Assembly: GCA_965262955.1 (NCBI GenBank)
Contig: CBDHGE010000001.1
Span: 208,046 to 272,045 of the forward strand
Length of the DNA: 64,000 bases
Source of the DNA: Candidatus Poribacteria bacterium
GTDB taxonomy: Bacteria > Poribacteria > WGA-4E > WGA-3G
Direction: 5' to 3'
In this document: piece by piece, positions 1-43,217 of the stretch
Numbering within the stretch: the first letter of the stretch is position 1
Layout of the letters: every line of letters begins with the position of its first letter
Position numbers and translations under genes: made by a program
The notes under the pieces: generated by a model
Database searches by the model: none
What the model was told of the DNA's origin: nothing
Seen by the model: only the letters and a program-made list of their open reading frames with translations

Positions 1-440
1 TGTTTGGAAACGAGTGTATAGGTGCCGCTGAGTGTTTGCGCAACCCTGTAGGATTTTGAATAGACGATGATTGATGCGGATTTGTGGACATCTTCCTCAC
101 CTCCATCCCGGACGTAGAGATAAACGGTCACGGCGACCGGCGGGACGACTTCTTCAGGTGGGAGTTCAGGCGCAGTCCACTGAACTGCGGGTCCTGCTTC
201 CCCAATCAAAGTGCCGTCGGATACATCCCACGTATACGTCAAAGGATCGTTTTCAGGATCAAAAACTCTGGATTTAAATTCAACGGTTTCACCGTATTCA
301 ACCTCACTGGGGACAGTGAAACTGGTTATTTTAGGTGGGTCATTAGTGAGTTTCCTATATTCGTCACAACCGCTGAATATAGCGATTTGGAAAACCACCA
401 AAATGATTACACCTATTTGCGTTAACTTAAAGGAATACAT
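1..440 (-). CDS. Partial lipoprotein running off the window start. The N-terminal domain is paralogous to the thioredoxin-domain lipoprotein at 5641..6972.
   Basis: Nucleotides 1-440 align at about 80% with 6536-6972. The minus-strand translation from the ATG at 440 is MYSFKLTQIGVIILVVFQIAIFSGCDEY, a signal peptide plus lipobox. The frame stays open to the window edge. It is absent from the ORF track because it is edge-truncated. Confidence 0.55.
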   Translation of the reverse strand, partial: MYSFKLTQIGVIILVVFQIAIFSGCDEYRKLTNDPPKITSFTVPSEVEYGETVEFKSRVFDPENDPLTYTWDVSDGTLIGEAGPAVQWTAPELPPEEVVPPVAVTVYLYVRDGGEEDVHKSASIIVYSKSYRVAQTLSGTYTLVSK

Positions 441-719: not shown

Positions 720-3700
720 TTACTTGCGTATCAACATCTTCCGTGTTGCGGTGTAATCGCCTGCGGTTAAGGTATAGAAGTAAATTCCGCTTGCAACGGG
801 TTCACCGAATTCATTCCTGCCATCCCAATATACCGCACGACTCCTACCTCGATACATGCCAGCAGCTTGATGTCCTAACGACAAATAACGCACTAAACGA
901 CCGTCTATCCCATAGATATGTACCGTCACATCTGCAGGATTTGACAACTGATACGGGATCCATGTTTCTGGATTGAACGGGTTTGGATAGTTCGGCAATA
1001 GGGTTGTATCTTCTGGAACCTGCACTGCGGAGAGATGTATCGCTGGAGCTGCTTGGACAGCACCAGTCGTACTCCGAAAATACTCGTAGTCAACTACTAA
1101 GGTGCCTGTTTGTGCGGCTACACCGGCATAAATCCCCAACTGTAACGGTGGAGTCAATGGAAAATGCGTAACGCCAATCTCTATCCAAGGCTCTGCCGCA
1201 CGGGTTTTATACCATCCGGTGTAGGCATCCCCGTCTTTGCGGAGGCGGAAAAATAGTTCGGTATCTCCATGCGTCGGCGTGAACCCCGCATTACCTGTTA
1301 AACCGTCTCCATGTTCACGTCCTCTGGTTTGATACTGAATTCGTCCCTTTGCACCCGGACCTTGAGACCAAAACTTTAGGGTTACCCAGTTATTGTCCGT
1401 GGGACTTTTCACAACAAGTCCATTAACTCCTGCAGTGGTATCCCATCTGGCAAAAAAGTGGGTTTCTACATCAAATGTATCGGCATCTGTCTCCTGATAT
1501 AGGAAATGAGAGGTATCCGATGTCCACTGGTTCCGGTTGGTCTCACCCTCGATATGTAGGAAATTACTTCGAGTTTCTCCGACATCCCAATTCGCTGGTT
1601 CATTTTGCCACTGCCAATTGGGGTTTTGCAGTGCTGTTCCTTCAAAGGAATCGTCAAAGTTGTCGGATATTCGCGTCGTGGCTATCGGTGTAACAGAGGC
1701 ATCCGCACCCATCGCTCGCTTGATTTCGGATACGTCCAGAGCAACGTTCCAGATAGCGACCTCATCAATCAGACCGATGTAGTGTTCCCGATTCCCTTCA
1801 CTATTTCTTCCGATAGAGAGTGGCACGTCGTTGGTATCAATTCGACCCGTTGCCGCGGTTTCTACTTTAAGTTCACCGTTATAGTACAGTTTCATCCGAT
1901 TGCCATCGTAGGTTGCAGTTAGGTGTGTCCACTGATTTAGTGGCAGTTGCGGACTGGGTCCGTTCCCACAACGTACTTCTCGTCCGCCATCAACTGACAT
2001 AATGAAACCTGTTTTTCCGTTGGAACCACCTTGCTGATAGAGTCCATAAACCATCCAAGGTGCAGTATCCCCCGCCCACGTTTTGACGATAATACGAAGC
2101 CACTCATGTGTAAATCGTGTCGGGTGCACCCACGCCATCAATGTAATTTCATCGGTGATGTCCAGAGAGGGTGAGTCTGGCACCTCCACCCAGCTGCCGC
2201 GTTGTCCAGTTAGTTCGATGGCTTCCCCGTTCTTCCCTTGTACCCATCGTGCGTTATGAACAATTCCGTTATTGCTGTGCTTGGAGGCATCTGTGGCGGT
2301 CGTTCCGACCCCGGCGTCAAATGGAAGATAAAGCACCAAATCATCAGCGTGGATAGTTCCGATAACCGAATCGGTTTCTATGGTCTCTGTGACACGCACG
2401 TCTTCGACCTGTACTGTGATATGTCGCACAACGCGCGATGTGCCGTCGCTTGCTGTTATCGCTACCGTCGAATTACCGACGCCTCTTGGCACGATTGCTA
2501 TCTGGGTTCCCAACGTGCGGACAGTCACCACGCCTGTGTTCGTTGATTCAACCTCATAACTCAAAACATCGTTGTCGGGATCGTTGAAATAAGATGACAT
2601 GTTCAGCATCATAGTACTACCGACGGTCAAAGTTTGGGCAGGGATTGTGCCAATTGCAACTGGAGACCGGTTTGATGTGTCTTCTATCGTCAACGGAAAC
2701 GTCTGTTTTGTAATGTTTCCACTCACATCAATAACCTGAAGCGTTATCTCGCTATCAACCCCAACTGTTAAGTCGGTTGTGACGAATTCAACCGTCTGCC
2801 TTTTGCCATTCAGGGATTTGCAACTATGCAACTTTAAGCCTGAGGCAGGATCGGTAGCTGCTACCGGGACAAGCAGCTGTGCCTGACGGAGGCCATCTGC
2901 ATCGTTCAGTTCAAACTGGAGACGAAGAGTCCGCGGGTTTGAGGCATTCGAGGCACGCATAGCAATCGTCGCGTTTTCATTGAAAAAGATTGGATCGTTA
3001 TTGAAGAAACGATGGGCATCCAACCATTCGGTGGCACAGTGCGACAAACGTTGCTGGGTGCCGTATCCCATCAGATAGGCATTGTCCCGGAAATCGTGCT
3101 CTAATCCAAAGACGTGTCCGAGTTCATGAGCAGTAATACTGGGGTTAATGCATACACCAGAGGCTGGGATGACTGCTAACCCGCCAAAATCTCGCCGCCA
3201 ATTCTCGTTATCAGACGAATTCCAACCGCCACCGCCTATCCCACAGGTATTTTCGTTATTAATAAATTCGCTACTCACATCTATTGCGACTAAAAAGACG
3301 TTTTTTGACGTATCAAACTGCTCAGCGATCTCATTCAGTACTTTGTTGTAGGTATCCTGATGATAGTATGTATCCGTGAACTTTCCGGTAACATGGTGGA
3401 CTTGTGCGTAACCGGTAGGCTCGGTTTCAAAGGCAAAGGTTTTTCGGTTGCCAATGCCTTGCATCTGTTCTGCGTAGAAGTACTGTGTCCATCTTATCAA
3501 TGTGTCTAATTCCTTCTCGATCCCTTGTCGGTGTGAACGATCGCTTGGGCGGAAGTAGACTAAGCGAACCATTTCTCGTTCATACTGTTGGATGGCTGTA
3601 TCATCTTCGGTCTGCGATATGGGTGTATTCTGTTTGGGCTTTTGGCTGTCTGTTTCCCGTTGCAAACGTTGCGTGGCGATGGGTGTAACATCCCACAAGA

Positions 3701-5603
3701 GGACGGTGCCATCGGGACTCCCAGTAGCGAGTGTGGTACCATCTGGACTAAAGGCGAGACTTTCAATCCAGTGCGCATGTCCATAGAGGACTTTGAATCG
3801 TTCCCCTGTGGCAACATCCCAAAAGAGTATCTCGGCTCCATTTCCGCCGGTTACGAGCATAGTGCCATCGGGACTGAAACTAACACCAGAATAATAGCAG
3901 GATCTTGAGATTGGAAGTGCGGCTTTGCGTTGCCCAGTCGCGACATCCCACAGCACGACCTTGGCATCATTATATCGCTCCCCCGGAGTCTCCACAGCGA
4001 GCGTTTTGCCATCCGGACTAAAAGTGATCCCAACACCACCTTTGATATGCCCACCGAGGGTATGGAGGAGTCGTCCGGTACCAACATCCCACACCCGAAC
4101 GGTGTCGTCATTATAACCACCACTTGCAAGTATGCTACCATTGGGACTGAAACTGACGCTCTGGACATGGGCAGTATGTCCTCTGAGGGTGGCTTTATGT
4201 GCGCCAGACCTTGCGTCCCACAAGCGTACAGTGGAATCCCCACCGCCACCGGCAATTGTCCTGCCGTCCGGAGAATAGGCAACGCACCAGACCCACTCCG
4301 TATGTCCAGTAAGTGTTACCTTTTGCCGCCCTGTGCGAACATCCCACAGATGGACTACTTTTTGAGTTGCAACCGCCAGTGTAAGTCCATCAGGAGAATA
4401 CGCGAGCGTGTCGCCCCAATTAGACCTCGTGGGCGGTGAGGGTTTAAGTTGTTCTGTAGCAATATCCCACAACTGGACACCGCTGTCAGCTCCAATTGCC
4501 AACGTGCCACCATCGGGAGAATATACAACCCTAACGACTTCTTTCGTATAACCTTTAATCGTAGATGTAATTTGACCTGTGCGAACATCCCAGAAGTGTA
4601 TCGTTCCACTCCGACTTACCCCAGCGAGTGTACGACCATCCCGTTGAAACATGAGGGAGCCAACACTGAAGGCATACCCGGCAGTGGCTTGGATTTCCCC
4701 CGCTGTAGCACTTTCAAATGTAGCTTTGACTTGTCCTGTGGTAGCATCCCAGACTCGAATTTTTCCATCCCAATGGCTGCTTACGAATATGGTACCATCT
4801 GGACTGAAGCTGGTGCTCTCGCCCCACCAATGCTCTGTAAGTGTGGATCTGAATCGCCCTGTGCCAGCATCCCATAGTATTATTTTTCCATCCCAACCTC
4901 CAGATGCGAGGGTTCTGCCATCCGGACTAAAGCTGACGCTACCGATCATTTTGGTATGCCCCGTTAGGTTCGCTATGAGTCTACCAGATCCTACATCCCA
5001 CAACCGCACAGTGGTGTCTCCACTCCCACTTGCGAGGGTCCTACCATCCGGACTGAACGCAATACCGGTGATGTCACTTGTGTGCCCTTGCAAAGTTCTG
5101 AGGATCTTACCGGTGCGGGTGTCCCACAACCTTATAGCGTTGTCAGCATACCCAGCACAAGCGAGTATACGACCATCGGGCGAATACCGAATGCTCTGAA
5201 TATCAGCATAACGGTTTTCAATAGGCGGTACACTAAGTATGTCTCTGGACTGCCACGTGGCAGTATCCCAGAGATGCACGTCGTGAACACTCCCACTTGC
5301 GAGTGTTCGACCATCGGGAGAATAAGCAACACTCCGAAATCTACGCGGTTTAGACGGATCTGGGGTGAGCCATTCAAGTACTGCTTCCGTTTGTGCATCG
5401 TATACCCAAACCCCAACGGAACTGGCTACTGCAAGTTGCGTCTCATCTGGAGAATATGTCAGTTCTCTTATGATACCTTTTCCGAAGCGAGCAATTGCAC
5501 CTTCAGGTAAATTCCATTGCGTGTAACTTTGTGCGAAGCTGTTTGGCACAACAGCAAGTGCTATCAACACGACAGCCAAAATCGAAAATAGTGTGATTTT
5601 CAT
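720..5603 (-). CDS. Giant secreted multidomain protein of 1627 aa. It has a signal peptide, about 14 WD40 repeats (two beta-propellers), a matrixin-like zinc metalloprotease (HELGHVFGLEH), a cadherin-like Ig domain, LamG/ConA-like lectin domains, and a T9SS type-A C-terminal sorting domain.
   Basis: The N-terminal signal peptide is MKITLFSILAVVLIALAVVPNSFAQ. WD40 motifs such as LASGSGDTTVRLWD recur. The metzincin motif HExxHxxGxxH is encoded around 3085-3125. The C-terminus, NYPNPFNPETWIPYQL...GIYFYTLTAGDYTATRKMLIRK, matches the Por-secretion tail. Confidence 0.85.
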   Translation of the reverse strand: MKITLFSILAVVLIALAVVPNSFAQSYTQWNLPEGAIARFGKGIIRELTYSPDETQLAVASSVGVWVYDAQTEAVLEWLTPDPSKPRRFRSVAYSPDGRTLASGSVHDVHLWDTATWQSRDILSVPPIENRYADIQSIRYSPDGRILACAGYADNAIRLWDTRTGKILRTLQGHTSDITGIAFSPDGRTLASGSGDTTVRLWDVGSGRLIANLTGHTKMIGSVSFSPDGRTLASGGWDGKIILWDAGTGRFRSTLTEHWWGESTSFSPDGTIFVSSHWDGKIRVWDATTGQVKATFESATAGEIQATAGYAFSVGSLMFQRDGRTLAGVSRSGTIHFWDVRTGQITSTIKGYTKEVVRVVYSPDGGTLAIGADSGVQLWDIATEQLKPSPPTRSNWGDTLAYSPDGLTLAVATQKVVHLWDVRTGRQKVTLTGHTEWVWCVAYSPDGRTIAGGGGDSTVRLWDARSGAHKATLRGHTAHVQSVSFSPNGSILASGGYNDDTVRVWDVGTGRLLHTLGGHIKGGVGITFSPDGKTLAVETPGERYNDAKVVLWDVATGQRKAALPISRSCYYSGVSFSPDGTMLVTGGNGAEILFWDVATGERFKVLYGHAHWIESLAFSPDGTTLATGSPDGTVLLWDVTPIATQRLQRETDSQKPKQNTPISQTEDDTAIQQYEREMVRLVYFRPSDRSHRQGIEKELDTLIRWTQYFYAEQMQGIGNRKTFAFETEPTGYAQVHHVTGKFTDTYYHQDTYNKVLNEIAEQFDTSKNVFLVAIDVSSEFINNENTCGIGGGGWNSSDNENWRRDFGGLAVIPASGVCINPSITAHELGHVFGLEHDFRDNAYLMGYGTQQRLSHCATEWLDAHRFFNNDPIFFNENATIAMRASNASNPRTLRLQFELNDADGLRQAQLLVPVAATDPASGLKLHSCKSLNGKRQTVEFVTTDLTVGVDSEITLQVIDVSGNITKQTFPLTIEDTSNRSPVAIGTIPAQTLTVGSTMMLNMSSYFNDPDNDVLSYEVESTNTGVVTVRTLGTQIAIVPRGVGNSTVAITASDGTSRVVRHITVQVEDVRVTETIETDSVIGTIHADDLVLYLPFDAGVGTTATDASKHSNNGIVHNARWVQGKNGEAIELTGQRGSWVEVPDSPSLDITDEITLMAWVHPTRFTHEWLRIIVKTWAGDTAPWMVYGLYQQGGSNGKTGFIMSVDGGREVRCGNGPSPQLPLNQWTHLTATYDGNRMKLYYNGELKVETAATGRIDTNDVPLSIGRNSEGNREHYIGLIDEVAIWNVALDVSEIKRAMGADASVTPIATTRISDNFDDSFEGTALQNPNWQWQNEPANWDVGETRSNFLHIEGETNRNQWTSDTSHFLYQETDADTFDVETHFFARWDTTAGVNGLVVKSPTDNNWVTLKFWSQGPGAKGRIQYQTRGREHGDGLTGNAGFTPTHGDTELFFRLRKDGDAYTGWYKTRAAEPWIEIGVTHFPLTPPLQLGIYAGVAAQTGTLVVDYEYFRSTTGAVQAAPAIHLSAVQVPEDTTLLPNYPNPFNPETWIPYQLSNPADVTVHIYGIDGRLVRYLSLGHQAAGMYRGRSRAVYWDGRNEFGEPVASGIYFYTLTAGDYTATRKMLIRK

Positions 5604-5640: not shown

Positions 5641-6972
5641 CTACTTTAGTGCATCTAAGATCTTCTCTGCAAAAACCGTTTTAGGCATTACCCCAACCAT
5701 TTTTCCGACCACTTTGCCATCTTGGAAGATAATATACGTTGGAATCCCATTGACTTTATATTCTCCGGGCGTCCGCGGGTTTGCATCAATATCCAATCGT
5801 CCAACGATGAAAGTATTACGGTGTTCCAATGCGACTGTCTCAACGACTGGCATCATTTGTCGGCAGAAGGGACACCAATCGGCAGCAAATTCAAGCACAA
5901 CGGGTGCCTTAGCATCCAGCACCTCGGTTTTGAATGTAGCATCGGTAATCTCAACAATTTTCCCATCAGCATTAATCAGTACTGGATCCACATCTTCTTC
6001 GGGAACTACATCAACGGGTTCGGGAACTACATCATCAACAATCTCAATCGGTTCATCAGCAACAGGTTCGGGAACTACATCATCAACGACTTCAATCGGA
6101 TCATCAGCAATCGGTTCAGGGACCACATCGTCAACGACTTCAATCGGATCATCAGCAATCGGTTCAGGGTCAATACCGTCATCAACAGGGACGGGATCGG
6201 TGTTGACCGGTTCAGGAGCAATATCTTTCGGATCATCGACTGTAATATCTCCAGTATCCTCTCCTATGATGCTGTAAACGTACCGCGTAGCAGTGGCTCG
6301 CATAAAGAGGACCAAGAGTCTACCGTCCCAAGTATATGTCCCCGTCAAAGGCGTAGGATTGCCATCAACAAACCAGTGAATCGTTCCTGTACTCTGGTCA
6401 AAAGGTGCAACAAGTTTATAGGTGCCCGAGCTATATTGAACTGGACCTTGGGCTTCGTCTTGGAATTCCCGTGTAAACGTTGAAATCGTGAGTCGCAGGA
6501 CGCCGGTTTCTTCAACGGGGTCTCCATGAACCTGCTTGGAAACGAGTTCATAGGTGCCGCTGAGTACTTGCGCAATCCGGTATGGTTTTGAAAAAATGAT
6601 AACTGATGCCGATTTGTGGACCTCTTCCTCGCCGCCATCCTGCACGGAAACGGAAACGGCTACCGTCGTTGGAGGCACAATTTCCTCAGGTGGAAGTTCT
6701 GGAGCAGTCCATTGAACTTCAGGTCCTGTGTCAACAATCAAAGTGCCTTTGGATACATCCCATACATAGGTTAAAGTATCATCTTCAGGATCAAATGCCC
6801 TCGCTTTAAATCTGACGGTTTCACCGTATGGGACTTCACCGGGGACAGTGAAACTGGTTATTTTAGGTGGGTCATTGGTGAGTTCATCATATTGGTCACA
6901 ACCGCTTAAGATGGCGATTTGGAGAGCTAACACAATGACCAAGCTGATCTGAGTTAGTTTAGAAAAATGCAC
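5641..6972 (-). CDS. Lipoprotein with an N-terminal Ig/FN3-like domain, an acidic 16-aa tandem-repeat linker and a C-terminal thioredoxin domain (WCPFC). It ends 37 bp upstream of the WD40-metzincin gene, so the two are probably co-transcribed.
   Basis: The signal and lipobox are ILSGC. Repeats of PEPIADDPIEVVDDVV occur about 3.5 times. The thioredoxin CxxC motif is WCPFCRQMMPV. Confidence 0.8.
   Translation of the reverse strand: MHFSKLTQISLVIVLALQIAILSGCDQYDELTNDPPKITSFTVPGEVPYGETVRFKARAFDPEDDTLTYVWDVSKGTLIVDTGPEVQWTAPELPPEEIVPPTTVAVSVSVQDGGEEEVHKSASVIIFSKPYRIAQVLSGTYELVSKQVHGDPVEETGVLRLTISTFTREFQDEAQGPVQYSSGTYKLVAPFDQSTGTIHWFVDGNPTPLTGTYTWDGRLLVLFMRATATRYVYSIIGEDTGDITVDDPKDIAPEPVNTDPVPVDDGIDPEPIADDPIEVVDDVVPEPIADDPIEVVDDVVPEPVADEPIEIVDDVVPEPVDVVPEEDVDPVLINADGKIVEITDATFKTEVLDAKAPVVLEFAADWCPFCRQMMPVVETVALEHRNTFIVGRLDIDANPRTPGEYKVNGIPTYIIFQDGKVVGKMVGVMPKTVFAEKILDALK
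5995..6180. repeat. Tandem repeat of 48 bp, about 3.5 near-identical copies, encoding the acidic PEPIADDPIEVVDDVV linker of the Trx lipoprotein.
   Basis: Repeated units of ggaactacatcatcaacgacttcaatcggatcatcagcaatcggttcagg are directly visible. Confidence 0.7.
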
Positions 6973-7108: not shown

Positions 7109-9781
7109 TTATTTGCGTATCAGCATTTTACGCGTCGCAGTGAAATCGCCTGCGGTTAAGGTATAGAAATACACGCCGCTTGCGACGGATTCACCTACTG
7201 CGTTTTTGCCATCCCAATATGCCGCACGGCTACGGGATTGGTAGATGCCTACTGCTTTATGCCCTAATGACAACGTTCTGACCAAACTCCCACCTACCGC
7301 ATAGATACGCAGGGTCACATCTGCGGGAGTTGCCAACTGATACGGAATCCACGTCTCTGGATTGAACGGGTTCGGGTAGTTTGCTAACAACGCTGTCTCT
7401 TTTGGAGTTAATGTCAACAGCAGCTGCTCAAGGAAGCGGATACCGCGTTGAGAGATTGCATCGGTAAGATTAAGTTGCTGTGCTTGTGTTAACCACTGCT
7501 GCACGGTCTCTGGAGAGAGTCGAGAGAGATTCGCTACAGCAGCTGGTGCACTGGCAGCCGTTTCTCCGAATGCCGCAGCCACGGAAACAAGGTCCCGAAT
7601 GTCAACTGTGCCATCACCATTGATGTCAGCAGGCGTTTCGCCTGTTTCGCCAAATGCCGCTGCTACGGAGACGAGATCGCGTATGTCAACCGTTCCATCA
7701 CCCGTGACATCGGCTGCGAGGCGAGGCGGTTCGGGTTCGACTTCTGGTTCCGGTTCGGGTTCCGGTTCTGGAGCGAGGTCCCACAGCAGCACGGTGGAAT
7801 CTTCACTACCACTCGCCAATGTCCTACCATCTGGACTGAACGAGACACTCTCAACATACGAGGTATGCCCAGTGAACTGGGATTGCAGCGTCCCAGTAGC
7901 AACATCCCACAGCCGGACCGTGCCGTCAACACTTCCACTGGCAAGGGTAGCTCCATCTGGACTGAACGACACACTCTCAACTTCATCTGTATGCCCAGTG
8001 AGTTCGGATTGCAGCGTCCCTGTCCCTATATTCCACAAACGCACCGTGGTGTCCCAACCCCCACTCGCAAGCATCTGACTACTCGGATTGAACGATACAC
8101 TCCGGACAGGCAAAGTATGTCCCATGAGTTCGGATTTCAGTGTTTCTGTCCCAACGTCCCATATACGCACCGTGGTGTCCCGACCCCCACTCGCAAGCAT
8201 TGAACCATCGGGACTGAACAATACAGTTTTGACCCAATGCGTATGTCCTGTGAGTTCGGCTTTCAACGTCCCAGTTCCTACATCCCACAAACGTACTGTT
8301 CCGTCACTACTACCACTGGCAAGGGTAGCTCCATTTGGACTGAACGATACACTATGAACACCTTCCGTATGCCCCTCGAGCGTAGTTTTCAGCGCACCAC
8401 TCCCGACATCCCATAAACGAATGGTCCGGTCTGCACTTCCACTGGCAAGGGTAGTTCCATTCGGACTGAACGATACACTCTCGACCCAGAGCGTATGTCC
8501 TGTGAGTATAGTGCTGACCGCCCCTGTGCCAACACTCCATAAACGCACAGTATTGTCATAACTCCCGCTCGCAAGTGAGGTGCCTTTCGGACCGAATGAT
8601 ACACTCGCGACACCACCTATATGCCCGGTGAATGTGGTTTTGAGGTCCCCCGTCTCAACATCCCACCAACGTACCGTATTGTCATAACTCCAACTCGCAA
8701 GCGTTTGACCATCCGGGCTGAACGACACATTCAAGACCTCGCGCGTATGTTCGGTGAACGTGGTTTTGAGGTCCCCCGTCCCAACGTTCCACAAACGCAC
8801 CGTGGTGTCACTACTACCACTCGCTAACGTCATACTATCTGGACTGAACGATACACTCTCGATCAAGGACGTATGCCCCATAAGCTCAAATTTTAACGTG
8901 CCAGTCGCAACATTCCATAAACGTACTGATCCCTCTGAACTCCCACTAGCGAGGGTCGTGCCATCTGGACTGAACGACACACTAAAGACATGATCGGTAT
9001 GCCCTGTGAGTTCGGATTTCAGTGTTCCAGTCCCTACATCCCATAAATGCACTAGTCCGCGTAAACTCCCACTAGCGAGGGTCGTGCCATCTGGACTGAA
9101 CGACACACTCTTGACCCCAATCGCACCCCCTGTGAGTTCAGATTTCAGCGTCCCTGTCCCTACATCCCATAAATGCACCGAGCCACTACCACCCATACAG
9201 GCAAGCGTCGTGCCATCTGGACTGAATGACACACTCTTGATACCACCCCAATGCTTTTCGAGCTCGGATTTTAGCGTCCCTGTCCCTACATCCCATAAAC
9301 GCACCGTAGGGTCGGATAGCCCGCTACTCGCAAGCGTTTGACCATCTGGACTGAACGATACACTCGAAATCTGATGCGTATGTCCAGTAAGCGTCGCTTT
9401 CGGCACAGCCGTCATAACGTCCCACAAACGCACCGTCGTGTCCTCATTCCCACTCGCTAACGTCATGCCATCCGGACTAAACGACACACTCTTGACCGAG
9501 TTTGTATGCTCTGTGAGGAGTGCGAGTTCTTGGTATGTCTCGGTATCATAAAGCCATATACCGATGCTACTTCCTACCGCAAGCAGTGAACCGTCTGAAG
9601 AATATGTTACCGCATTTATACTACCTTTACCGAATCGCGCTTTGGCTCCTTCGGGTAAACCCAATTGCGTATACTCCTGATATTGTCCGAAGGTACTTGG
9701 TAGATACACTGTTGAAAATAAAATGAACGCCAAAATTATTGAAAATAATCTCGTTTTCATCGGAAGTTTACCTCTTTTCAA
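7109..9781 (-). CDS. Secreted WD40 beta-propeller protein of 890 aa, with about 14 repeats, a Pro-Glu linker, duplicated dockerin type-I repeats and a T9SS type-A C-terminal sorting domain.
   Basis: A signal peptide is present and LASGS.D.TVRLWDV repeats recur. The linker is PEPEPEPEPEVEPEPP. The dockerin repeats read DVTGDGTVDIRDLV twice. The C-terminus is NYPNPFNPETWIPYQL...GVYFYTLTAGDFTATRKMLIRK. The likely true start is M8, with AGAGG 9 nt upstream, at about 9760. Confidence 0.85.
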   Translation of the reverse strand: MKRGKLPMKTRLFSIILAFILFSTVYLPSTFGQYQEYTQLGLPEGAKARFGKGSINAVTYSSDGSLLAVGSSIGIWLYDTETYQELALLTEHTNSVKSVSFSPDGMTLASGNEDTTVRLWDVMTAVPKATLTGHTHQISSVSFSPDGQTLASSGLSDPTVRLWDVGTGTLKSELEKHWGGIKSVSFSPDGTTLACMGGSGSVHLWDVGTGTLKSELTGGAIGVKSVSFSPDGTTLASGSLRGLVHLWDVGTGTLKSELTGHTDHVFSVSFSPDGTTLASGSSEGSVRLWNVATGTLKFELMGHTSLIESVSFSPDSMTLASGSSDTTVRLWNVGTGDLKTTFTEHTREVLNVSFSPDGQTLASWSYDNTVRWWDVETGDLKTTFTGHIGGVASVSFGPKGTSLASGSYDNTVRLWSVGTGAVSTILTGHTLWVESVSFSPNGTTLASGSADRTIRLWDVGSGALKTTLEGHTEGVHSVSFSPNGATLASGSSDGTVRLWDVGTGTLKAELTGHTHWVKTVLFSPDGSMLASGGRDTTVRIWDVGTETLKSELMGHTLPVRSVSFNPSSQMLASGGWDTTVRLWNIGTGTLQSELTGHTDEVESVSFSPDGATLASGSVDGTVRLWDVATGTLQSQFTGHTSYVESVSFSPDGRTLASGSEDSTVLLWDLAPEPEPEPEPEVEPEPPRLAADVTGDGTVDIRDLVSVAAAFGETGETPADINGDGTVDIRDLVSVAAAFGETAASAPAAVANLSRLSPETVQQWLTQAQQLNLTDAISQRGIRFLEQLLLTLTPKETALLANYPNPFNPETWIPYQLATPADVTLRIYAVGGSLVRTLSLGHKAVGIYQSRSRAAYWDGKNAVGESVASGVYFYTLTAGDFTATRKMLIRK

Positions 9782-12964: not shown

Positions 12965-13417
12965 TTAAATACCAAACGTTTTTTCCAGATTGTCTCTGAG
13001 TCGAGTTATAATTATCGCCTCTAATTGTTCAAGAGACTGTGTACTATCCACATCCACCAGTGCATCCACAAGTTGTAAGAGCTCTTCCTGCTCGGCTACG
13101 TCGCAGGCTCTAAGTGTGCCCACAATTTCACTGATCTGCGGTAAGACATAAGCTTTGAAATCGGGTGGTGCGTATTGGAGTTCTTCCATAATTATGTCCA
13201 TCTCCTCAACGGCATTTTTTAACTGCGATTCCAACGCCTCGAGTGCTTTTTGTTGCCTATTGATGGAATTGACTTGCAGGTTAACTGGCACTACGGTGTT
13301 GTGGACAGCAGCCTCCCTTGCTTCCAGAACCCTACTTTCCAAATCAACTAAGGCTCTGAATTTCTCTACGATTATGTCTGCCAGTTCCGTTGTCTGTCCA
13401 GTTTCTTTCTCAGTCAT
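12965..13417 (-). CDS. Small acidic, probably all-helical protein of about 150 aa, of unknown family. It is paralog A of 15286..15717.
   Basis: It shares about 50% identity with the protein at 15286..15717. The most conserved block is AYVLPQ[IM]SEI[VI]GTL[RK]ACD..LE[QE]LEAIITRL[RK]DNLE. The likely start is the ATG (M7) at 13417, with GGAGA 11 nt upstream. The track start is a GTG at 13435. Confidence 0.65.
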   Translation of the reverse strand: MTEKETGQTTELADIIVEKFRALVDLESRVLEAREAAVHNTVVPVNLQVNSINRQQKALEALESQLKNAVEEMDIIMEELQYAPPDFKAYVLPQISEIVGTLRACDVAEQEELLQLVDALVDVDSTQSLEQLEAIIITRLRDNLEKTFGI

Positions 13418-13631
13418 TCGTTCACTTTTCTCCACGGATTTAATTTGGCTTATAAGTCAATTATCGCTTATAGTCATATTAAGGCGTTACTACGTTTTTA
13501 CAATCATTTCAATATATCACATTTTATACGTTCTTTTCAAGATGCAACAATACCTTACTTAAACTTAAATTATAATAAAAGATAGATATGAATTTCTAAG
13601 TATCTTCCATAAAAGGCTAATATCTATACTT

Positions 13632-13661: not shown

Positions 13662-13685
13662 AAACGCGACGCATACTTTTTGGAC

Positions 13686-14058: not shown

Positions 14059-15219
14059 ATGAAAGACATGAAAAATAAGTCATTACCTATTACTTTGACA
14101 TCGGCACCGATGCAGGAAATTTATCACCAAGTAGAGCAAGTTGCGCCAACAGAAACGACTGTTCTTATTACCGGTGACACGGGTGTTGGTAAAGAGATCA
14201 TCGCCCATAAAATACACAAGGCAAGCTTGCGAAATGCCAAACTTTTCAAAGCCATCAACTGCAGTGCATTCCCTGACAATGGACTTTTGTTGAGTGAATT
14301 GTTTGGTCATGAGAAAGGAGCATTTACCGGGGCAGCACATCAGCGAAAAGGTGTATTTGAACAGGTAGACACTGGAACCCTACTTCTCGATGAAGTAAGC
14401 GAAATGAGCGCTGAAGTGCAGGCGATGTTTCTTCGCGTGTTAGAAACCCAAGAATTCACAAGAGTTGGTGGAAACAGGACGATTAAAGCGGATGTTCGTG
14501 TTGTCGCTGCTACAAACAAATGCCTCGAAACAGCAATTAAAAACAGTCAATTCAGAGAGGATCTTTATTACCGCCTCAACCACTTCCCCATTTACATCCC
14601 GTCTCTACGAGAGCACCGTGAAGATATTCCGCCTTTAGTTGATGCCTTTATCTCCGAATTCAATACCAAACATGAGAAAAGTGTTACGAACATCACACCT
14701 GAGGCAAGGAATTTTCTCAAATATGCTGCCTGGCCCGGTAATATCCGCCAACTCAGAAACACTGTTGAAAGGGCAATCATTCTAACCAAAACGAATGAAT
14801 TAACGTTCAGCGATTTGCCTGCTGACATTGCAATCGCGCCACAGATAGTAATAGCGACGCGTCCGTCGGACGCCAACACGTCCACCGCTATTCCAACAGA
14901 AGTTCGTCAAATATTGACACAAATTTCAGTGACGGAGTTCATCTTGATTTTTGGTGGAATACCGAATGCTGTTTGGCGAGTGCTTCCTGAAAAGACGCAG
15001 CAGTCTGTTATCCGTGAGGCATCATTTCATTTATCAACGCTTTTAGGCGGACATCAGGACACAATTCGGATCAGTGGTATGGATCGAAATCAAATCTTAG
15101 GGAAAGTTGCCCAGCACCGCATAAAAGAACATGGCTCTCTTGCGCGAGCCGCAAAGTCGTTAGGTGTAGATCGCCGAACACTTAAAACGTACACAAAAGC
15201 AGATGATGTGAGTGAATGA
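14059..15219 (+). CDS. Sigma-54-dependent transcriptional activator (bacterial enhancer-binding protein) consisting only of the AAA+ sigma-54 interaction domain and a C-terminal Fis-type HTH. It has no N-terminal sensory or receiver domain, making it a PspF/HrpS-class activator.
   Basis: Walker A is GDTGVGKE, the sigma-54 contact motif is GAFTGA and Walker B is LLLDEVSEM. The C-terminal HTH is HGSLARAAKSLGVDRRTLKTY. The AAA+ domain begins about 20 aa from the N-terminus. Confidence 0.9.
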   Translation: MKDMKNKSLPITLTSAPMQEIYHQVEQVAPTETTVLITGDTGVGKEIIAHKIHKASLRNAKLFKAINCSAFPDNGLLLSELFGHEKGAFTGAAHQRKGVFEQVDTGTLLLDEVSEMSAEVQAMFLRVLETQEFTRVGGNRTIKADVRVVAATNKCLETAIKNSQFREDLYYRLNHFPIYIPSLREHREDIPPLVDAFISEFNTKHEKSVTNITPEARNFLKYAAWPGNIRQLRNTVERAIILTKTNELTFSDLPADIAIAPQIVIATRPSDANTSTAIPTEVRQILTQISVTEFILIFGGIPNAVWRVLPEKTQQSVIREASFHLSTLLGGHQDTIRISGMDRNQILGKVAQHRIKEHGSLARAAKSLGVDRRTLKTYTKADDVSE

Positions 15220-15285
15220 AGCGAAATGGACGGACAGGGAGTCCGCCCACTGGTGAATCAAAATACAAGAAGAATGACTGACCGC

Positions 15286-15717
15286 CTACTCAAGACTAAA
15301 CGAGCGTTCAAGATTGTCCTTGAGTCGTGTTATAATTGCCTCTTCCAATTGCTCGGAGGACTCGGCGTTCTCGTCAGTCAGTGCCGTCACAAGTTGGGTA
15401 AGTTCACTGCGATCAGCTGCATCGCAGGCTTTAAGTGTTCCAATAATTTCACTCATCTGCGGTAAGACGTAAGCTCTGAAACAAGGCGTTGCGAGCGTGA
15501 GTTCGTCCGTAATCCCATCCAACTCTTCAACACTCTCCTTTAATTCCGATTCCAATGCCGCCAAGCCATCAGGAGTGCCGCCATTGGCAGAGCGTTGGAG
15601 TGCGGTGTCCCGCGTCTCCAGAACTTTGTCCTCCAAGGCAACTAAGTCTCTAACTTTCGCCACAATTGCATCCGCGCGTTCTTGCGCCTCTCTAAGTTCC
15701 TGCTCAGTCATTTGCAT
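15286..15717 (-). CDS. Small acidic helical protein, paralog B of 12965..13417, convergent with the activator gene.
   Basis: Paralogy is as described for paralog A. The strong RBS GGGAGG lies 7 nt before the ATG at 15717. The longer track ORF starts further upstream in the Fe-ADH 3' gap. Confidence 0.65.
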   Translation of the reverse strand: MQMTEQELREAQERADAIVAKVRDLVALEDKVLETRDTALQRSANGGTPDGLAALESELKESVEELDGITDELTLATPCFRAYVLPQMSEIIGTLKACDAADRSELTQLVTALTDENAESSEQLEEAIITRLKDNLERSFSLE

Positions 15718-15774
15718 TTGTGTGCCTCCCAAAGTTAAACCATAGAATGTTGACCATGCCACCAATTGCTACAG

Positions 15775-15803
15775 ATTATACAAACCTTTCCAATTTTTGT
15801 CAA
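15775..15803 (-). promoter_or_regulatory. Perfect consensus sigma-70 promoter, TTGACA-17 bp-TATAAT, driving paralog B.
   Basis: The minus strand reads cTTGACAaaaattggaaaggtttgTATAATctg, about 55 nt upstream of the RBS. Confidence 0.55.
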
Positions 15804-15810
15804 GTCCCCT

Positions 15811-16980
15811 TCAAAATGCTGCTTCAAACAGCGCAACCATGTCCTCCTCCGTACACCGCCTCGGATTGAACTTGTGGCAGTGATCAAGCATTGCATCTGC
15901 ACCGAGTTTTGGAATCTTCCCTCGATCTAAGCCAGCAGCTCCGAGTCCCGTGGGCATATTCAGTTCAGTGTTAAACGCCCTAATTTTATCAATGGCGGCA
16001 TTTCCTGCTTCGTCGCCACTCATATCGCTGGTGTCTATACCTAAGGCACGGGCGACTTCGGCGTATTTCTCGCTTGCATGAGAGAAGTTAAACTCCATAA
16101 CAGGGGGAAGGAGAATCGCGTTCGCTACCCCATGCGGGATAGGAGCATCTGTAGAGAGTTGATGTGCCAGTGAGTGAACCGCGCCAAGCCCCTTCTGAAA
16201 CGAAAAAGCTGCCATGCACGATCCGAGTAGCATTTCCCCTCGCGCGGTTACGTCTTCACCATTGTGATAGACCTGCTGGATATTCGCACTCAACATTTTG
16301 AGTGCCTGCAACGCGACACCCTCAGCAATTGGATGGTATTTTGTCGCAACATACGCCTCAATACCGTGGGTGATGGCATCCATACCTGTCGCCGCTGTGA
16401 GTGCGGGGGGCATACCGACAGTTATCCCCGGATCAAGGAGTGCTACGTTCGCCATGTTAAACGGCGTAACGATGGCGCGTTTCCGCCACCGATTGGTTGT
16501 TTGGAACGAGGTATCCGTAATAATTGAACCTTGTGAAACTTCGCTGCCAGTGCCAGCGGTTGTTGGAACACATATTAGGGGTGGCATATCGTCACGGATT
16601 CGGTCTACTCCACCGACATCAGCGTAATAAGGTTCTAAAGGTGGTTCATGCGTCGTTAAGAGGCGGATGGCTTTAGCAGCATCCATTACACTTCCACCAC
16701 CGACAGCAACAACAACATCACATGCCTCGGCTTTGTAAGCATCTACGCCGTGTGTGATGCTGGTGTCCGTGGGATTCGGTTCGATGTCTGAATAGGTAGC
16801 ATGTGCTAAACCCGCCGCGTCCAATGCATCTATTGCTTTGGCGAGGATACCGGCATTAATAACGCCAGCATCACTCACAAGGAGCGGTTTTTTCCCATCA
16901 AACGCTTTGACATGCTCACCCAAGTCTTGGATGGTGCCGTCTCCAAATTCGATTCGTGGAGGTAAGAAATAACTCAACAT
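15811..16980 (-). CDS. Iron-containing (group III) alcohol dehydrogenase.
   Basis: The motif GGGSVMDAAKA is present, along with TTAGTGSE-like and His-rich metal-binding motifs. It overlaps the upstream TGT-like gene by 7 bp. Confidence 0.85.
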   Translation of the reverse strand: MLSYFLPPRIEFGDGTIQDLGEHVKAFDGKKPLLVSDAGVINAGILAKAIDALDAAGLAHATYSDIEPNPTDTSITHGVDAYKAEACDVVVAVGGGSVMDAAKAIRLLTTHEPPLEPYYADVGGVDRIRDDMPPLICVPTTAGTGSEVSQGSIITDTSFQTTNRWRKRAIVTPFNMANVALLDPGITVGMPPALTAATGMDAITHGIEAYVATKYHPIAEGVALQALKMLSANIQQVYHNGEDVTARGEMLLGSCMAAFSFQKGLGAVHSLAHQLSTDAPIPHGVANAILLPPVMEFNFSHASEKYAEVARALGIDTSDMSGDEAGNAAIDKIRAFNTELNMPTGLGAAGLDRGKIPKLGADAMLDHCHKFNPRRCTEEDMVALFEAAF

Positions 16981-18923
16981 TTTTTGTCAATTCCTATAAT
17001 TTTTTCCTGTATTACTTCAACCAAGGCATCTACGTTGGTGTGCCTGAAGAATTCTGCCAATCGTTGCTGTTTGGGAGCTTTCGGCAATAAAATGAATCCC
17101 GGAAAACGCTTCTCTGTAAGGGCAAAGACCGCTCTGTACGCCCTGCTCGTCGCGTATCCGATTGTAAATTTATAGTCATCTCGATACTTTTTGAGGTAGT
17201 CAATTAACCGAGTTGTACACCGCTCAATTTGTGCTTTGTTTTTATGCGAGAGCTGAAAATCGTAACGGATGACAGCATCCCATGTTTCAAATTCTTCGGG
17301 TACCGGACCGTAAAGTCCAGAAAGGGTTATCTTATGGATATAGTCCTGCTTTTCAGCAAGGACAGCCTGCAATCTATTTGTAATCATCGTATGCGTGCGC
17401 GACACGGAATACGGTTTTTTGCCAGCACAAGGAATCGCAAGCAGAATCTCTTTAGCATCTGGTGGTCGATAATCGTCAGGTACTCGGAAATCATCAGGCG
17501 TATAAGCGAGTGAGACGGTTCGAGGTGTTTGATCTTTCCCATCGTTGTTAGCGTCCCTGCGGGTGGAAGGAAAGAGTTCTAATTGATTCGGATTTAGCTG
17601 CGTACGCTTTGTAGACGATGGCGTAGGTTTCTGAATTAATGTACGGGTTAATCGGGTTGCAAGCACATCATCGTTTTCAGCAAGCCATGCCGATGCGCGC
17701 TTCAAGCCACGGAATCGTTGATACTTAGTGAGATACCGAATTAAGCACTCAAGCGCATCGTCTGCTGCGATTGCGGTGTGCATTTCGGTGAGAATGTCGG
17801 CTTCCATCTGGAAGTTGTGAAGTCCAATAGCGGCGTAGTATTCGCTTTTAAACTTGCCCGTGGAGGTGGCTCTGTAACTTTGCTTATCCATGAACGCCTG
17901 CTGTATTTCTTGAAGCGGATAGGCTTCACAGATGTAGCAAGTGCAGTCGGTTTCATCCATCTCCATGATTCTACGTTTCCCTTGGGTGTCTGGATCTGAG
18001 TATACAAGACTCCGAGACGTTTGAATATAGGCAGAACTGTCGAAAGTGTCAACACCGATATAGGCGAGAAGGGGGGTCAGCGCACCAGAAACACCGAAAG
18101 CGTGAACGGGAGTCGTATCTCGCCGAGACTCTGGAATCGCTTGGACAACGGCGTTAAGCATCTCCATAACTTCCGAGTCGTTCTTACCGCGGAAAGGTAC
18201 GAGCGATCCAACAGCAAGCCCAAAAGAGGGTAGCATGTCCCCTATCTGTGTAAATACGTTGTTCACATAATCTGTGATATCCTCCCCAGATTGTCCATGA
18301 CAAGAGGTGTAGAGATAAGGAACGGTCTGCATATCAGCAGAACTTGCCGTTAGACGCTCTGCGACTCGGACAGCATTTGCGAGGCTCTGTTCCATTCGCT
18401 CTTCAGCCTCTGATCGCGCTAAATTGGGTGGAAGTGGGTAATCGAAAGAGGCAACAATATCACCCTCAAAACCTAATTGCAGATTGAGGATGTCCTCCGC
18501 CTCCGTTTCCTTGTGAATCCCGAATTCTTCGAGATCCAAGCCTGTCTTGTAGAGAAGTTTGAAACCGCCGGAATCTAAAAAGAATGCGCCTTCATACTCG
18601 CCATTCTGCTCACGATAGTGTTCCCGCATTGATTTTCCATACCAATTTGCCAGATAGCGTCCAGTGAGTGGATAATCGAGAAAGTGCAAGATCTGAGATA
18701 ACATCGGTCTTTGCTGCTGCATCAGAATGTGCAGAATGTATTTCCAGACCCCACCGCCGCGCGTACTGGTGCCTGTCAGAAAGTTAACAACGGGATATAA
18801 ATATGGTGTTGTGAGTTTTCTACCGTTGGAACTGAGCCTAAGTTCACCGATCCGACCATGCGGGGTTGAGATGCGGGTTTCAAAGGTAGGAGTGGAGGTT
18901 CCGGTTTGGAGGTGTTCTTGCAT
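16974..18923 (-). CDS. tRNA-guanine transglycosylase superfamily protein (DpdA/ArcS-like) with a C-terminal extension of about 230 aa, possibly DUF5591-like.
   Basis: TGT hallmarks are TPHGRIG..TPYLYPVVN, the catalytic Asp contexts FLDSGGFK and GVDTFDSS, and the zinc site CTCYIC...LHNF. The ~230-residue C-terminal domain is not part of canonical bacterial Tgt. Confidence 0.7.
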   Translation of the reverse strand: MQEHLQTGTSTPTFETRISTPHGRIGELRLSSNGRKLTTPYLYPVVNFLTGTSTRGGGVWKYILHILMQQQRPMLSQILHFLDYPLTGRYLANWYGKSMREHYREQNGEYEGAFFLDSGGFKLLYKTGLDLEEFGIHKETEAEDILNLQLGFEGDIVASFDYPLPPNLARSEAEERMEQSLANAVRVAERLTASSADMQTVPYLYTSCHGQSGEDITDYVNNVFTQIGDMLPSFGLAVGSLVPFRGKNDSEVMEMLNAVVQAIPESRRDTTPVHAFGVSGALTPLLAYIGVDTFDSSAYIQTSRSLVYSDPDTQGKRRIMEMDETDCTCYICEAYPLQEIQQAFMDKQSYRATSTGKFKSEYYAAIGLHNFQMEADILTEMHTAIAADDALECLIRYLTKYQRFRGLKRASAWLAENDDVLATRLTRTLIQKPTPSSTKRTQLNPNQLELFPSTRRDANNDGKDQTPRTVSLAYTPDDFRVPDDYRPPDAKEILLAIPCAGKKPYSVSRTHTMITNRLQAVLAEKQDYIHKITLSGLYGPVPEEFETWDAVIRYDFQLSHKNKAQIERCTTRLIDYLKKYRDDYKFTIGYATSRAYRAVFALTEKRFPGFILLPKAPKQQRLAEFFRHTNVDALVEVIQEKIIGIDKKC

Positions 18924-19013
18924 ACTTCCGAAAATTTGAAGGGCTCTCTATAAAGGTAGCGCGAGACACTGCTGCCTCGCGCTATAGGTTCTTGGAGTGT
19001 TGAAAGTTAGAAT

Positions 19014-38494: not shown

Positions 38495-38997
38495 TCTAAA
38501 ATACCACCTAAATAATGGTACCGCGGTGGGAAAAAATACTGGAACACCCCGCGAACAGTTAACATTTTAGTTTATTATACAAACCCAAGTTGCTACCTCA
38601 CCTAAGTTGCCATTCAAACGAAAAAACCGAAGCAAAACAACGAGGATTCAACTTTTAAAACCATATTAGGACAGTAATTTATAATGATTAAAGGTAGAAA
38701 TCATGATTCCTAACATACAGATAATAGCATAACCCAAAAAATAAAGGTAGAAAAAAGCAATTTTTTTACAAGGTGGCAACTTGGATTATTAATAGACAAG
38801 TAAATAATTAACAATATTGCTGTATTATGATTATAAGATTAGATTTCAACACATAGATTAAGTTAAATCTGTGTATGATTTCAAAATGAGTGGAACTTGG
38901 TACGGTATCCATGCTAAAAGATGTGAGAATAAATCCGAGTATGACGCAATATGAGAGAAAATTACCACAATTTTTAGTGGCAATTCGCGTAATAATT

Positions 38998-39041
38998 GTA
39001 GGTAAGCTCTCAAAAATTGTAGGTAAGCTCTCAAAAATTGC
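38998..39041. repeat. Two direct copies of a 22-bp unit, GTAGGTAAGCTCTCAAAAATTG, in an AT-rich intergenic region.
   Basis: Directly visible. Confidence 0.8.
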
Positions 39042-39085
39042 TGTGTATGTTAAATTTAACATTATCATACAATAAAAAAAGAAGC

Positions 39086-39126
39086 AAGAAAATAAAAAAT
39101 CGCCCACAAGTCAATTGTGGGCGATT
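39086..39126 (-). terminator. Rho-independent terminator for the lipoprotein gene 39138..41156.
   Basis: The 11-bp perfect stem ATCGCCCACAA/TTGTGGGCGAT with a 5-nt loop lies 12 nt after the stop. It is followed on the minus strand by TTTTTTATTTT. Confidence 0.6.
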
Positions 39127-39137
39127 TGGAAACGGAC

Positions 39138-43196: not shown

Positions 43197-43217
43197 CCAG
43201 AGGAAATATAATTTTCA

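Follow-up and report, generated by a model that had tools for sequence, protein, structure and literature searches.

The window analysed here, a 64,000-nucleotide stretch of a Candidatus Poribacteria genome (GenBank assembly GCA_965262955.1, contig CBDHGE010000001.1, positions 208,046 to 272,045 of the forward strand), carries a gene for a protein in which a tRNA-guanine transglycosylase (TGT)-type domain is fused to DUF5591, the C1 domain of the archaeal enzyme ArcS (archaeosine synthase). An iron-dependent alcohol dehydrogenase (Fe-ADH) gene follows on the same strand and overlaps it: the fusion gene ends '...AAA TGT TGA' and the Fe-ADH gene begins 'ATG TTG AGT' (Table 1). The N-terminus of the fusion protein reads GRIGEL...TPYLYPVVN, and further along it carries the motifs FLDSGGFK (D117), GVDTFDSS (D292/D295) and CTCYIC (C327/C329/C332), then His369-Asn370.

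The N-terminal part is recognized by Pfam as TGT (PF01702) at residues 110-402 (E 4e-18, 66 bits against a cut-off of 26.3), and it scores 62.1 bits with the NCBIfam superfamily model TIGR00449 (tgt_general), above the cut-off of 47.6. Scores with the narrower models fall well short of their cut-offs: 75.7 bits against 350 for ArcTGT/TgtA (TIGR00432), and 35.1 against 306.75 for bacterial Tgt (TIGR00430), on which ground an ordinary bacterial Tgt was rejected. Neither the NCBIfam DpdA model NF041059 nor PADLOC PDLC02807/02808 gave a match at E ≤ 0.1; these models do match other, TGT-only proteins, and membership of DpdA was likewise rejected. The PADLOC 'TGT' model PDLC00913, taken to be of the Cap10 type, did not match the protein either. 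The sole sequence relative of this part in PDB is 1iq8, the ArcTGT of P. horikoshii, whose D95, D249 and CSCPVC pair with D117, D295 and CTCYIC; D95 and D249 are the catalytic residues of ArcTGT (PMC5699537). Foldseek against PDB also ranked 1iq8 first (E 4e-20), with bacterial TGTs next, and a TGT-like protein of phage nt-1 was among the best viral fold matches. Alignment by eye sets the pocket motif GSLVP against GGVVP of the preQ0-specific ArcTGT and GGLAV of bacterial TGT, and reveals no equivalent of Glu235, which suggests preQ0 rather than preQ1 as the inserted base.

Beyond a linker, the last ~180 residues correspond to DUF5591 (PF17884, residues 480-591, E 2.7e-13, 50.4 bits against a cut-off of 26). 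The NCBIfam ArcS alpha model NF040592 scores 76.2 bits against a cut-off of 440, its best stretch being residues 480-600, and the ArcS model NF053620 scores 43.2 against 600. In PDB, the C-terminal 197 residues match only 2q07 (E 0.0024, spanning the motif region), the Archaeoglobus protein AF0587, which the entry lists as uncharacterized and which we take to be the C-terminal fragment of a split ArcS. Residues 498-511, PCAGKKPYSVSRTH, fit exactly the ArcS C1 signature PC-X3-KPY-X2-S-X2-H (PMC10516641, PMC5699537). DUF5591 begins at residue 480, whereas in ArcS it starts near model position 284; the difference arises from the full-length TGT domain in front of it, which has the complete catalytic set of two Asp residues and zinc site. 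An AlphaFold2 (AF2) model built from 34 family sequences (mean predicted local distance difference test score, pLDDT, 83.5; predicted template-modelling score, pTM, 0.81) comprises a TGT barrel with zinc subdomain (1-428, pLDDT mostly >85), a disordered linker (430-466, pLDDT <50) and an alpha/beta C-terminal domain (470-649). Pfam finds no PUA domain at E ≤ 0.1, and C2 is missing from both the Pfam assignment and the AF2 model. Canonical ArcTGT and ArcS use C2 and PUA for tRNA, PUA being the tRNA-binding element of ArcS (PMC10516641). In its architecture, then, the ArcTGT-like catalytic domain is complete and is joined through a linker to the ArcS C1 domain, with neither C2 nor PUA present.

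Much of this had been anticipated by an initial annotation made from the sequence, which described a 649-residue member of the TGT superfamily distinct from canonical Tgt, with intact catalytic and zinc motifs, a 7-bp overlap with the Fe-ADH gene and an additional C-terminal domain to be compared with DUF5591 and PUA. The open reading frame (ORF), the family assignment, the motifs and the overlap all hold, and the additional domain proved to be DUF5591, with no PUA. Its placing of the protein with DpdA/ArcS-like enzymes survives for ArcS, by virtue of the C1 domain and its motif, and fails for DpdA, since no DpdA model matches and the TGT domain is nearest to ArcTGT.

Table 1. Positions of the fusion gene, its parts and the adjoining elements (window coordinates)
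Feature	Position	Strand	Evidence
TGT-DUF5591 fusion gene, 649 aa	16974..18923	-	ORF list and Pfam; stop codon 16974..16976
Residues 1-428, complete TGT-type (beta/alpha)8 catalytic domain with zinc subdomain, ArcTGT-like	17640..18923	-	Pfam, NCBIfam, PDB, AF2, Foldseek
Asp117 codon (LDSGG), counterpart of ArcTGT Asp95	18573..18575	-	1iq8 alignment; 65/65 members
Asp295 codon (FDS), counterpart of ArcTGT nucleophile Asp249	18039..18041	-	1iq8 alignment; 65/65 members
Zinc site Cys327-x-Cys329-xx-Cys332 ... His369	17817..17945	-	CTCYIC versus CSCPVC of 1iq8; 65/65 members
Residues 429-469, linker, predicted disordered, poorly conserved	17517..17639	-	pLDDT; gappy, variable alignment columns
Residues 470-649, DUF5591/ArcS C1-type Rossmann-like domain	16977..17516	-	PF17884; NCBIfam ArcS alpha; PDB 2q07
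ArcS signature P498-C-AGK-KPY-SV-S-RT-H511 (PC-X3-KPY-X2-S-X2-H)	17391..17432	-	Published motif definition; 65-member alignment
Fe-dependent alcohol dehydrogenase gene, downstream, co-directional	15811..16980	-	Pfam Fe-ADH and ADH_Fe_C
7-bp overlap ATGTTGA, ADH start / TGT stop	16974..16980	-	Direct sequence reading
8-bp GC-rich hairpin/inverted repeat AGCGCGAG-N10-CTCGCGCT	18958..18983	-	Read by eye

The fusion is not peculiar to this genome. More than 300 full-length homologous clusters were found, and all 120 among the matches listed carry both TGT and DUF5591; among 1.84 billion representatives, a profile search matched 123 clusters at E ≤ 1e-30, including split forms with the TGT part or the DUF5591 part only. 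When one genome per GTDB species was scanned, the loci closest to the window copy (85% identity) were again from Candidatus Poribacteria, a phylum in which the family is widespread and in which at least four genomes have two copies; many of the Poribacteria records are assembled to chromosome level. Outside Poribacteria the distribution is sporadic. At 32-42% identity, more distant members were found in Cyanobacteria (Nostoc, Planktothrix, Spirulina, Coleofasciculus, Allocoleopsis), in Chloroflexota (Anaerolineaceae, Chloroflexia, Thermosporothrix), in metagenome-assembled genomes (MAGs) of Symbiobacteriaceae and Blastocatellia (Acidobacteriota), and on haloarchaeal megaplasmids. Carriers that can be cultivated include Allocoleopsis franciscana PCC 7113 (CP003630), Nostoc sp. 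MG11, Spirulina subsalsa, Thermosporothrix hazakensis ATCC BAA-1881, Haladaptatus sp. YSMS36 and Natrinema sp. SYSU A 869. No viral relatives were found in IMG/VR or among GenBank phages, on which ground a phage or prophage origin was rejected.

Across 65 full-length members from six phyla, Asp117, Ser118, Gly119, Asp161, Gly239, Ser240, Val242, Pro243 and Asp295 are invariant, as are the zinc-site residues Cys327, Cys329, Cys332 and His369. The same is true of Cys499, Lys503, Pro504, Tyr505 and Ser508 in the C1 motif, while His511 is kept in 62 of the 65. With the key positions invariant, both halves appear to be catalytically active and jointly under selection. Public records name these proteins 'tRNA-guanine transglycosylase' or similar; a literature search found no published description of a TGT-DUF5591 fusion, no public name for the protein and no account of its solitary, phylum-wide form in Poribacteria. 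In two loci outside that phylum the gene is damaged, being split into two ORFs in L068 (9953-11834) and cut to 159 aa in L071 (9992-10471).

No neighbour is common to all loci. However, similar kinds of neighbour recur across independent lineages, and in each of the 19 loci outside Poribacteria with usable flanks (L051, L054-L057, L059, L060, L062, L066, L068, L070-L072, L074, L076, L078-L081), at least one neighbour belongs to the 7-deazaguanine-supply or restriction-type classes. On the supply side, QueC adjoins the fusion gene in L060, L062, L076 and L078. The first three of these proteins exceed the TIGR00364 equivalog cut-off (182-206 bits versus 150), and that of L078 is assigned by Pfam only. 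A queuosine-precursor transporter of the Vut_1/YhhQ type is adjacent in L060, L068, L070, L076 and L078, the L070 protein scoring 122 bits with TIGR00697 against a cut-off of 51.

The restriction-type neighbours are more varied. Proteins of ~1200-1400 aa with DEAD/Helicase_C domains, some also with an MrfA zinc-binding domain, are DpdJ homologues according to PADLOC (491 bits, E 1e-147, in L062; 191 bits in L055), and a STAND-like NTPase of ~1000 aa is a weak match to DpdH (62 bits). L060 and L070 have small phospholipase D (PLD)-type nucleases, and L079 has a 1389-aa helicase together with a PD-(D/E)xK nuclease; in Thermosporothrix, Blastocatellia and L076 the fusion gene is flanked by HerA and NurA-like genes. 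In eight cyanobacterial loci the fusion gene is followed by a GmrSD_N/DUF262 protein (208 bits with PADLOC NsnA, 144 bits with PD-T4-2_A) and a HEPN protein. In the DUF262 protein the stretch IDGLQRV contains a DGxQR motif, which resembles the DGQQR of DpdB, the ParB-fold ATPase that DpdA needs and that is structurally homologous to SspE. The N-terminal domain of SspE is a DUF262 domain. On the haloarchaeal plasmids the annotated neighbours are a DEAD/DEAH box helicase of 1571 aa (Natrinema) and an AAA domain-containing protein of 1493 aa (Haladaptatus), and Haladaptatus, like L062, has two convergent copies of the fusion gene. DpdJ/DpdH-like genes and the DUF262 NTPase are thus present near relatives, whereas neither DpdB nor DpdC was identified there. 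Among the annotated neighbours of the family loci there is no CD-NTase (cGAS/DncV-like nucleotidyltransferase), and no member of the Radical_SAM family, to which the ArcS partner RaSEA belongs, was seen either there or in the window ORFs that were scanned.

These contexts recall a recently described group of systems. In BRIGADE, reported only from haloarchaea, and in unnamed 'Dpd-like' classes, helicases of the YprA/DpdJ type and PLD or PD-(D/E)xK nucleases accompany a 7-deazaguanine cluster (bioRxiv 10.1101/2025.09.15.676423). The surroundings of L054, L055, L060, L062, L070 and L079-L081 are of this kind; the window copy, unlike them, has no such partners. No TGT, ArcS or DUF5591 enzyme is named in the text or supplements of that preprint, and a review of the QueC family is silent on neighbours of the TGT or ArcS kind. 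Where it occurs in defence islands, the fusion family overlaps the Dpd-like and BRIGADE systems, and the enzyme itself was not found described in the literature.

Some individual loci deserve mention. L062 (a Symbiobacteriaceae MAG, 9166-21998) and L078 (7354-14787) share an arrangement of QueC, TGT-DUF5591, a 259-aa protein with no Pfam match and a STAND/DpdH-like NTPase of ~1000 aa. To this L062 adds a convergent 756-aa TGT-DUF5591 paralogue and the 491-bit DpdJ-type helicase, L078 repeating the first part, and the compact island looks like a distinct Dpd-like system without DpdA, DpdB or DpdC. In L060 (an Anaerolineaceae MAG) the gene directly preceding the fusion gene (7908-9665) encodes a diadenylate cyclase of the DisA type that has DACNG/DACNH sensor domains, and a nucleoside 2-deoxyribosyltransferase (16321-16725) lies downstream of the DpdJ-like helicase and PLD nuclease. 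In L070 (a Chloroflexia MAG) the fusion gene is immediately preceded, in a single instance, by a DUF366 protein (PF04017, 198 bits; 9313-9912).

Within Poribacteria, clades were defined from a neighbour-joining tree with neighbour maps. In two of them, comprising 17 loci, an N6_N4 DNA methyltransferase directly precedes the fusion gene on the same strand, and in 7 of the 17 a MutH/MvaI-type endonuclease lies between the two. A paralogue clade, which co-occurs with the methyltransferase-linked copies in the same genomes, has instead a 128-aa gene of the PTPS/QueD family directly upstream. This gene is divergent (35 bits, where the cut-off for QueD is 89), and only fragments of it are left in L032, L038, L042, L045 and L049 (near 9700-9993); in L026 the QueD-like gene, the methyltransferase and the fusion gene stand in a row. 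The QueD-like fragments, together with the damaged copies in L068 and L071, are signs of decay in some lineages. In the clade of the window copy (59-100% identity) the upstream gene varies, and in L011, L013 and L014 it encodes a 1100-aa protein with PLD and SNF2 helicase parts (PADLOC 'HKD+Snf2', 267 bits).

The window copy itself is solitary, in a clade-specific operon with Fe-ADH. As the initial annotation had stated, no Que or Dpd partner was found in the window, neither by tblastn with 15 partner proteins from related loci nor by Pfam on 20 distinct ORFs, ~30 further ORFs lying outside that scan; the same searches gave no dpdB, dpdC or dpdD-K. The other scanned ORFs are of ordinary metabolic or symbiont type (PSCyt2/PSD1, 3-keto-disaccharide-hydrolase-like, epimerase, cupin, HD, ankyrin and others). 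Upstream of the fusion gene, neither the window nor L036, L070 or L076 showed a preQ1 or other riboswitch. The Fe-ADH scores below every NCBIfam equivalog cut-off. Its gene is invariably the next one downstream in this clade, usually at a distance of -8 to +13 bp and sometimes of 78-251 bp, so that the exact overlap is not conserved, the 7-bp version being particular to the lineage of the window. The linkage is absent at the non-Poribacteria loci and in the other Poribacteria clades. The pairing noted in the initial annotation is therefore real as an operon of this clade and not a feature of the family, and Fe-ADH was rejected as a family-wide functional partner; a role within the clade is still conceivable.

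On balance, we incline to regard the fusion as a two-activity enzyme of 7-deazaguanine nucleic-acid modification, which would insert preQ0 and then add an amine to it, with DNA as the target, and which in this clade would be an orphan. The initial annotation had already suggested a nucleic-acid modification activity, and the linkage of relatives to preQ0 supply and defence modules fits a 7-deazaguanine-type enzyme, here lacking local partners. ArcTGT and DpdA exchange guanine for preQ0, and the TGT domain of the fusion keeps the nucleophile and the acid/base Asp of ArcTGT, the base-recognizing Asp161 and the zinc site. In a first step, the ArcTGT-like domain would swap the target guanine for preQ0, with Asp295 acting as nucleophile and Asp117 as general acid/base. 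In a second, the tethered DUF5591/ArcS-C1 domain would attach an amine, donated by ammonia or an amino acid, to the nitrile of the preQ0 just inserted, giving an archaeosine-type formamidine (G+) or a preQ0-amino-acid adduct; both steps would then take place on one substrate molecule. ArcS itself adds an amine to the nitrile of bound preQ0: in T. kodakarensis the amine is that of lysine and RaSEA, which this ArcS requires, acts next, while M. jannaschii uses ammonia, Gln or Asn. The closest precedent comes from Vibrio phage nt-1, in which DpdA2 and a PUA-less, stand-alone DUF5591 protein, ArcS2, produced dPreQ0 and then dG+ in E. coli plasmid DNA (PMC10516641). It is this precedent and the ArcS motif that point to the second step.

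The choice of DNA as target, which we favour by a narrow balance of probability, follows from the gene context and the absence of PUA: supply genes stand together with Dpd-type or other nuclease-helicase modules, DNA methyltransferases and restriction endonucleases are neighbours, and archaeal copies are carried on plasmids. Since its relatives lie in anti-virus gene islands, the window protein probably writes an unusual modified guanine, most likely into DNA. Outside Poribacteria the family would supply Dpd-like and other restriction-type islands with their modification module. In the window clade, where restriction-type partners are missing, it would be an orphan genome-marking enzyme, co-transcribed with an unrelated Fe-ADH and using preQ0 made or imported elsewhere in the genome.

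Comparison with known enzymes sets the fusion apart from each of them. It shares with the euryarchaeal ArcS alpha subunit (T. kodakarensis, M. jannaschii) a TGT-related N-terminal part followed by C1/DUF5591 with the signature motif, and the chemistry to be expected is the same, amine addition to the nitrile of nucleic-acid-bound preQ0; unlike ArcS, it is bacterial, lacks C2/PUA, scores far under the ArcS cut-offs and has no RaSEA-type neighbour in view. For residues 1-410 nothing matches better in sequence and fold than ArcTGT/TgtA (P. horikoshii 1iq8), but the window protein again lacks C2/PUA, and its C-terminal domain bears the ArcS-specific insertion and motif. The phage nt-1 pair DpdA2 and ArcS2 likewise combines a TGT-family transglycosylase with a PUA-less DUF5591 core domain; the window version is a single polypeptide, is cellular, and has a TGT domain that is ArcTGT-like rather than DpdA2-like by sequence. 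With the DpdA/DpdB/DpdC module of the bacterial Dpd restriction-modification system it has in common an enzyme of the TGT superfamily, and several lineages of the family adjoin genes for DpdJ, weak DpdH, QueC and preQ0 transporters, whereas the window protein is unmatched by DpdA models and retains the canonical TGT zinc site. With DUF5591 in place of a separate DpdC, a product of the G+ type is predicted rather than 7-amido-7-deazaguanine (ADG).

Several observations weigh against this proposal. Partners of the Que, Dpd, helicase or nuclease kind are missing from the window, so that the case for DNA is an extrapolation from relatives sharing 32-64% identity, and all functional claims draw on sequence, predicted structure and gene context. 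The TGT domain scores best against a tRNA enzyme, ArcTGT, and not at all against DpdA models. Vertical conservation throughout the phylum is also what is expected of a housekeeping tRNA enzyme, and some of the gene adjacency may be mere clustering in defence islands. Phage ArcS2 yielded only trace dG+ (PMC10516641). That inefficiency, together with the fact that no RaSEA-like radical-SAM partner is seen near any family member, makes the chemistry of the second step and its product uncertain; the latter could be G+, a lysine adduct or an amide.

The alternative that survives best, although we hold it to be unlikely, is that the fusion acts on tRNA or another RNA in bacteria, the ArcTGT-like domain inserting preQ0 and C1 turning that into an archaeosine-like base. 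On this view Poribacteria would modify tRNA in the archaeal manner, and the defence-island copies of other phyla would put the enzyme to a separate use. By profile model, PDB sequence and fold, ArcTGT comes nearest to the TGT domain, the ArcS C1 motif is exact, and public annotation names a tRNA-guanine transglycosylase. In addition, inheritance is vertical and conservation strong across Poribacteria, and the neighbours in the window are of housekeeping type. Nor does the chemistry demand PUA, since T. kodakarensis ArcS is active even on the 5'-monophosphate of the preQ0 nucleoside. Nevertheless, both tRNA-binding domains, C2 and PUA, are missing, and scores lie far under the equivalog cut-offs of ArcTGT and ArcS. 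The 19 readable non-Poribacteria loci all have a nuclease, helicase or NTPase as neighbour, and in none of them does a translation-related partner occupy a conserved position, while Poribacteria loci have a DNA methyltransferase and a MutH-like nuclease upstream. The haloarchaeal megaplasmid copies adjoin giant helicases, and haloarchaea also possess their own tRNA enzymes.

A substrate other than nucleic acid seems very improbable. The fusion would in this case handle a protein-linked or free 7-deazaguanine, as in Cap9/Cap10 of type IV CBASS (cyclic-oligonucleotide-based antiphage signalling system) or in QatBC, or would be a base-binding sensor or regulator. TGT- and QueC-family proteins have indeed been recruited for protein-nucleobase conjugation in defence systems, the family does occur in defence islands, and QueC is adjacent at some loci; Cap10 moreover has the TGT fold, retains the nucleophilic Asp and acts in a defence context. 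However, Cap10 has no zinc site, measures ~340 aa and binds a 7-deazaguanine-modified CD-NTase, whereas the fusion keeps the zinc site in all 65 members. The adjacent QueC proteins pass the cut-off for genuine QueC, and a preQ0-type transporter is co-located. A Cap10 identity, or protein deazaguanylation, was rejected on the zinc site, the protein size, the missing CD-NTase and the lack of a match to the PADLOC Cap10-type model.

Least probable of all, in our estimate, is that the gene is a relic in the clade of the window, its defence partners lost and its present role either nil or tied to the Fe-ADH operon and unrelated to 7-deazaguanines: the lack of partner genes, the fragmentary QueD-like neighbours and split or truncated copies, and the conserved Fe-ADH adjacency are what a relic might show, but Fe-ADH is absent at all non-Poribacteria loci and in the other Poribacteria clades, the ORF is intact, and the members of the clade, 59-90% identical along their whole length, have retained all catalytic residues, which argues that both activities are under purifying selection.

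To our knowledge, the DpdABC system (dPreQ0, dADG) and phages (eight derivatives) have so far been the only known sources of 7-deazaguanine modifications of DNA. If the two-activity enzyme proposed above does act on DNA, a cellular fusion of insertion with ArcS-type tailoring would bring this chemistry to the chromosomes and plasmids of bacteria and archaea. Dpd-like, BRIGADE-like, HerA-NurA and GmrSD_N/HEPN islands would gain a defined 'self' mark, and a compact tool consisting of one gene would become available for placing a positively charged guanine analogue in DNA. Poribacteria are a candidate phylum that includes sponge symbionts, and in these uncultivated, ecologically important bacteria a genome-wide base modification would alter the reading of long-read signals and of restriction barriers. 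Were tRNA the target instead, Bacteria would have their first archaeosine-type tRNA pathway. The fusion is a concrete and readily testable candidate for a new hypermodification of cellular DNA, or of bacterial tRNA.

We would go further only tentatively, with an idea that we find possible but rather doubtful as a whole. Poribacteria may carry in their own DNA a chromosomally fixed archaeosine-type mark, dG+ or a preQ0-amino-acid adduct, written by a single fused transglycosylase-amidinotransferase that descended from a Dpd-like modification module and was kept after loss of its restriction partners, in the way of an orphan methyltransferase, here for a hypermodified base. If so, Poribacteria would provide the first case of dG+ in a cellular genome and the first example of a single protein leading from DNA guanine to an archaeosine-type base.

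Of the minor features of the window, the hairpin AGCGCGAG-N10-CTCGCGCT lies in the 90-bp spacer between the stop of the upstream gene and the start of the fusion gene. It is possibly a terminator or a regulatory hairpin, and as a terminator it would make the TGT-ADH pair a separate unit. Two paralogous small proteins of 156 and 159 aa (12965..13435 and 15286..15765, both minus strand), the first with no Pfam family match, bracket a 386-aa protein (14059..15219, plus strand) that by eye resembles a sigma-54-type AAA+ transcriptional activator. The stretch 12001-14000 is AT-rich (GC 0.386 versus ~0.48), and a second low-GC stretch (0.411), at 38001..40000, holds a 99-aa ORF in which IFESLPT occurs twice. 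Repeated gene pairs, all on the minus strand, occupy 1..440 and 5641..6972 together with 720..5603 and 7109..9781. They include two predicted lipoproteins with the common N-terminus …KLTQI…SGCD.Y..LTNDPPKITSFTVP.EV.YG, each upstream (5', on the minus strand) of a very large secreted protein, of 1627 and 890 aa, the N-termini of the large proteins being similar. A three-gene run on the plus strand at 42561..44134 encodes an HD-domain protein, a member of the aminoglycoside-2''-adenylyltransferase family (114 bits) and a member of the tautomerase family. Finally, an ankyrin-repeat protein is encoded at 53599..54195 on the plus strand (Pfam Ank); such proteins are a hallmark of sponge-symbiont genomes, and its presence fits the Poribacteria origin of the window.

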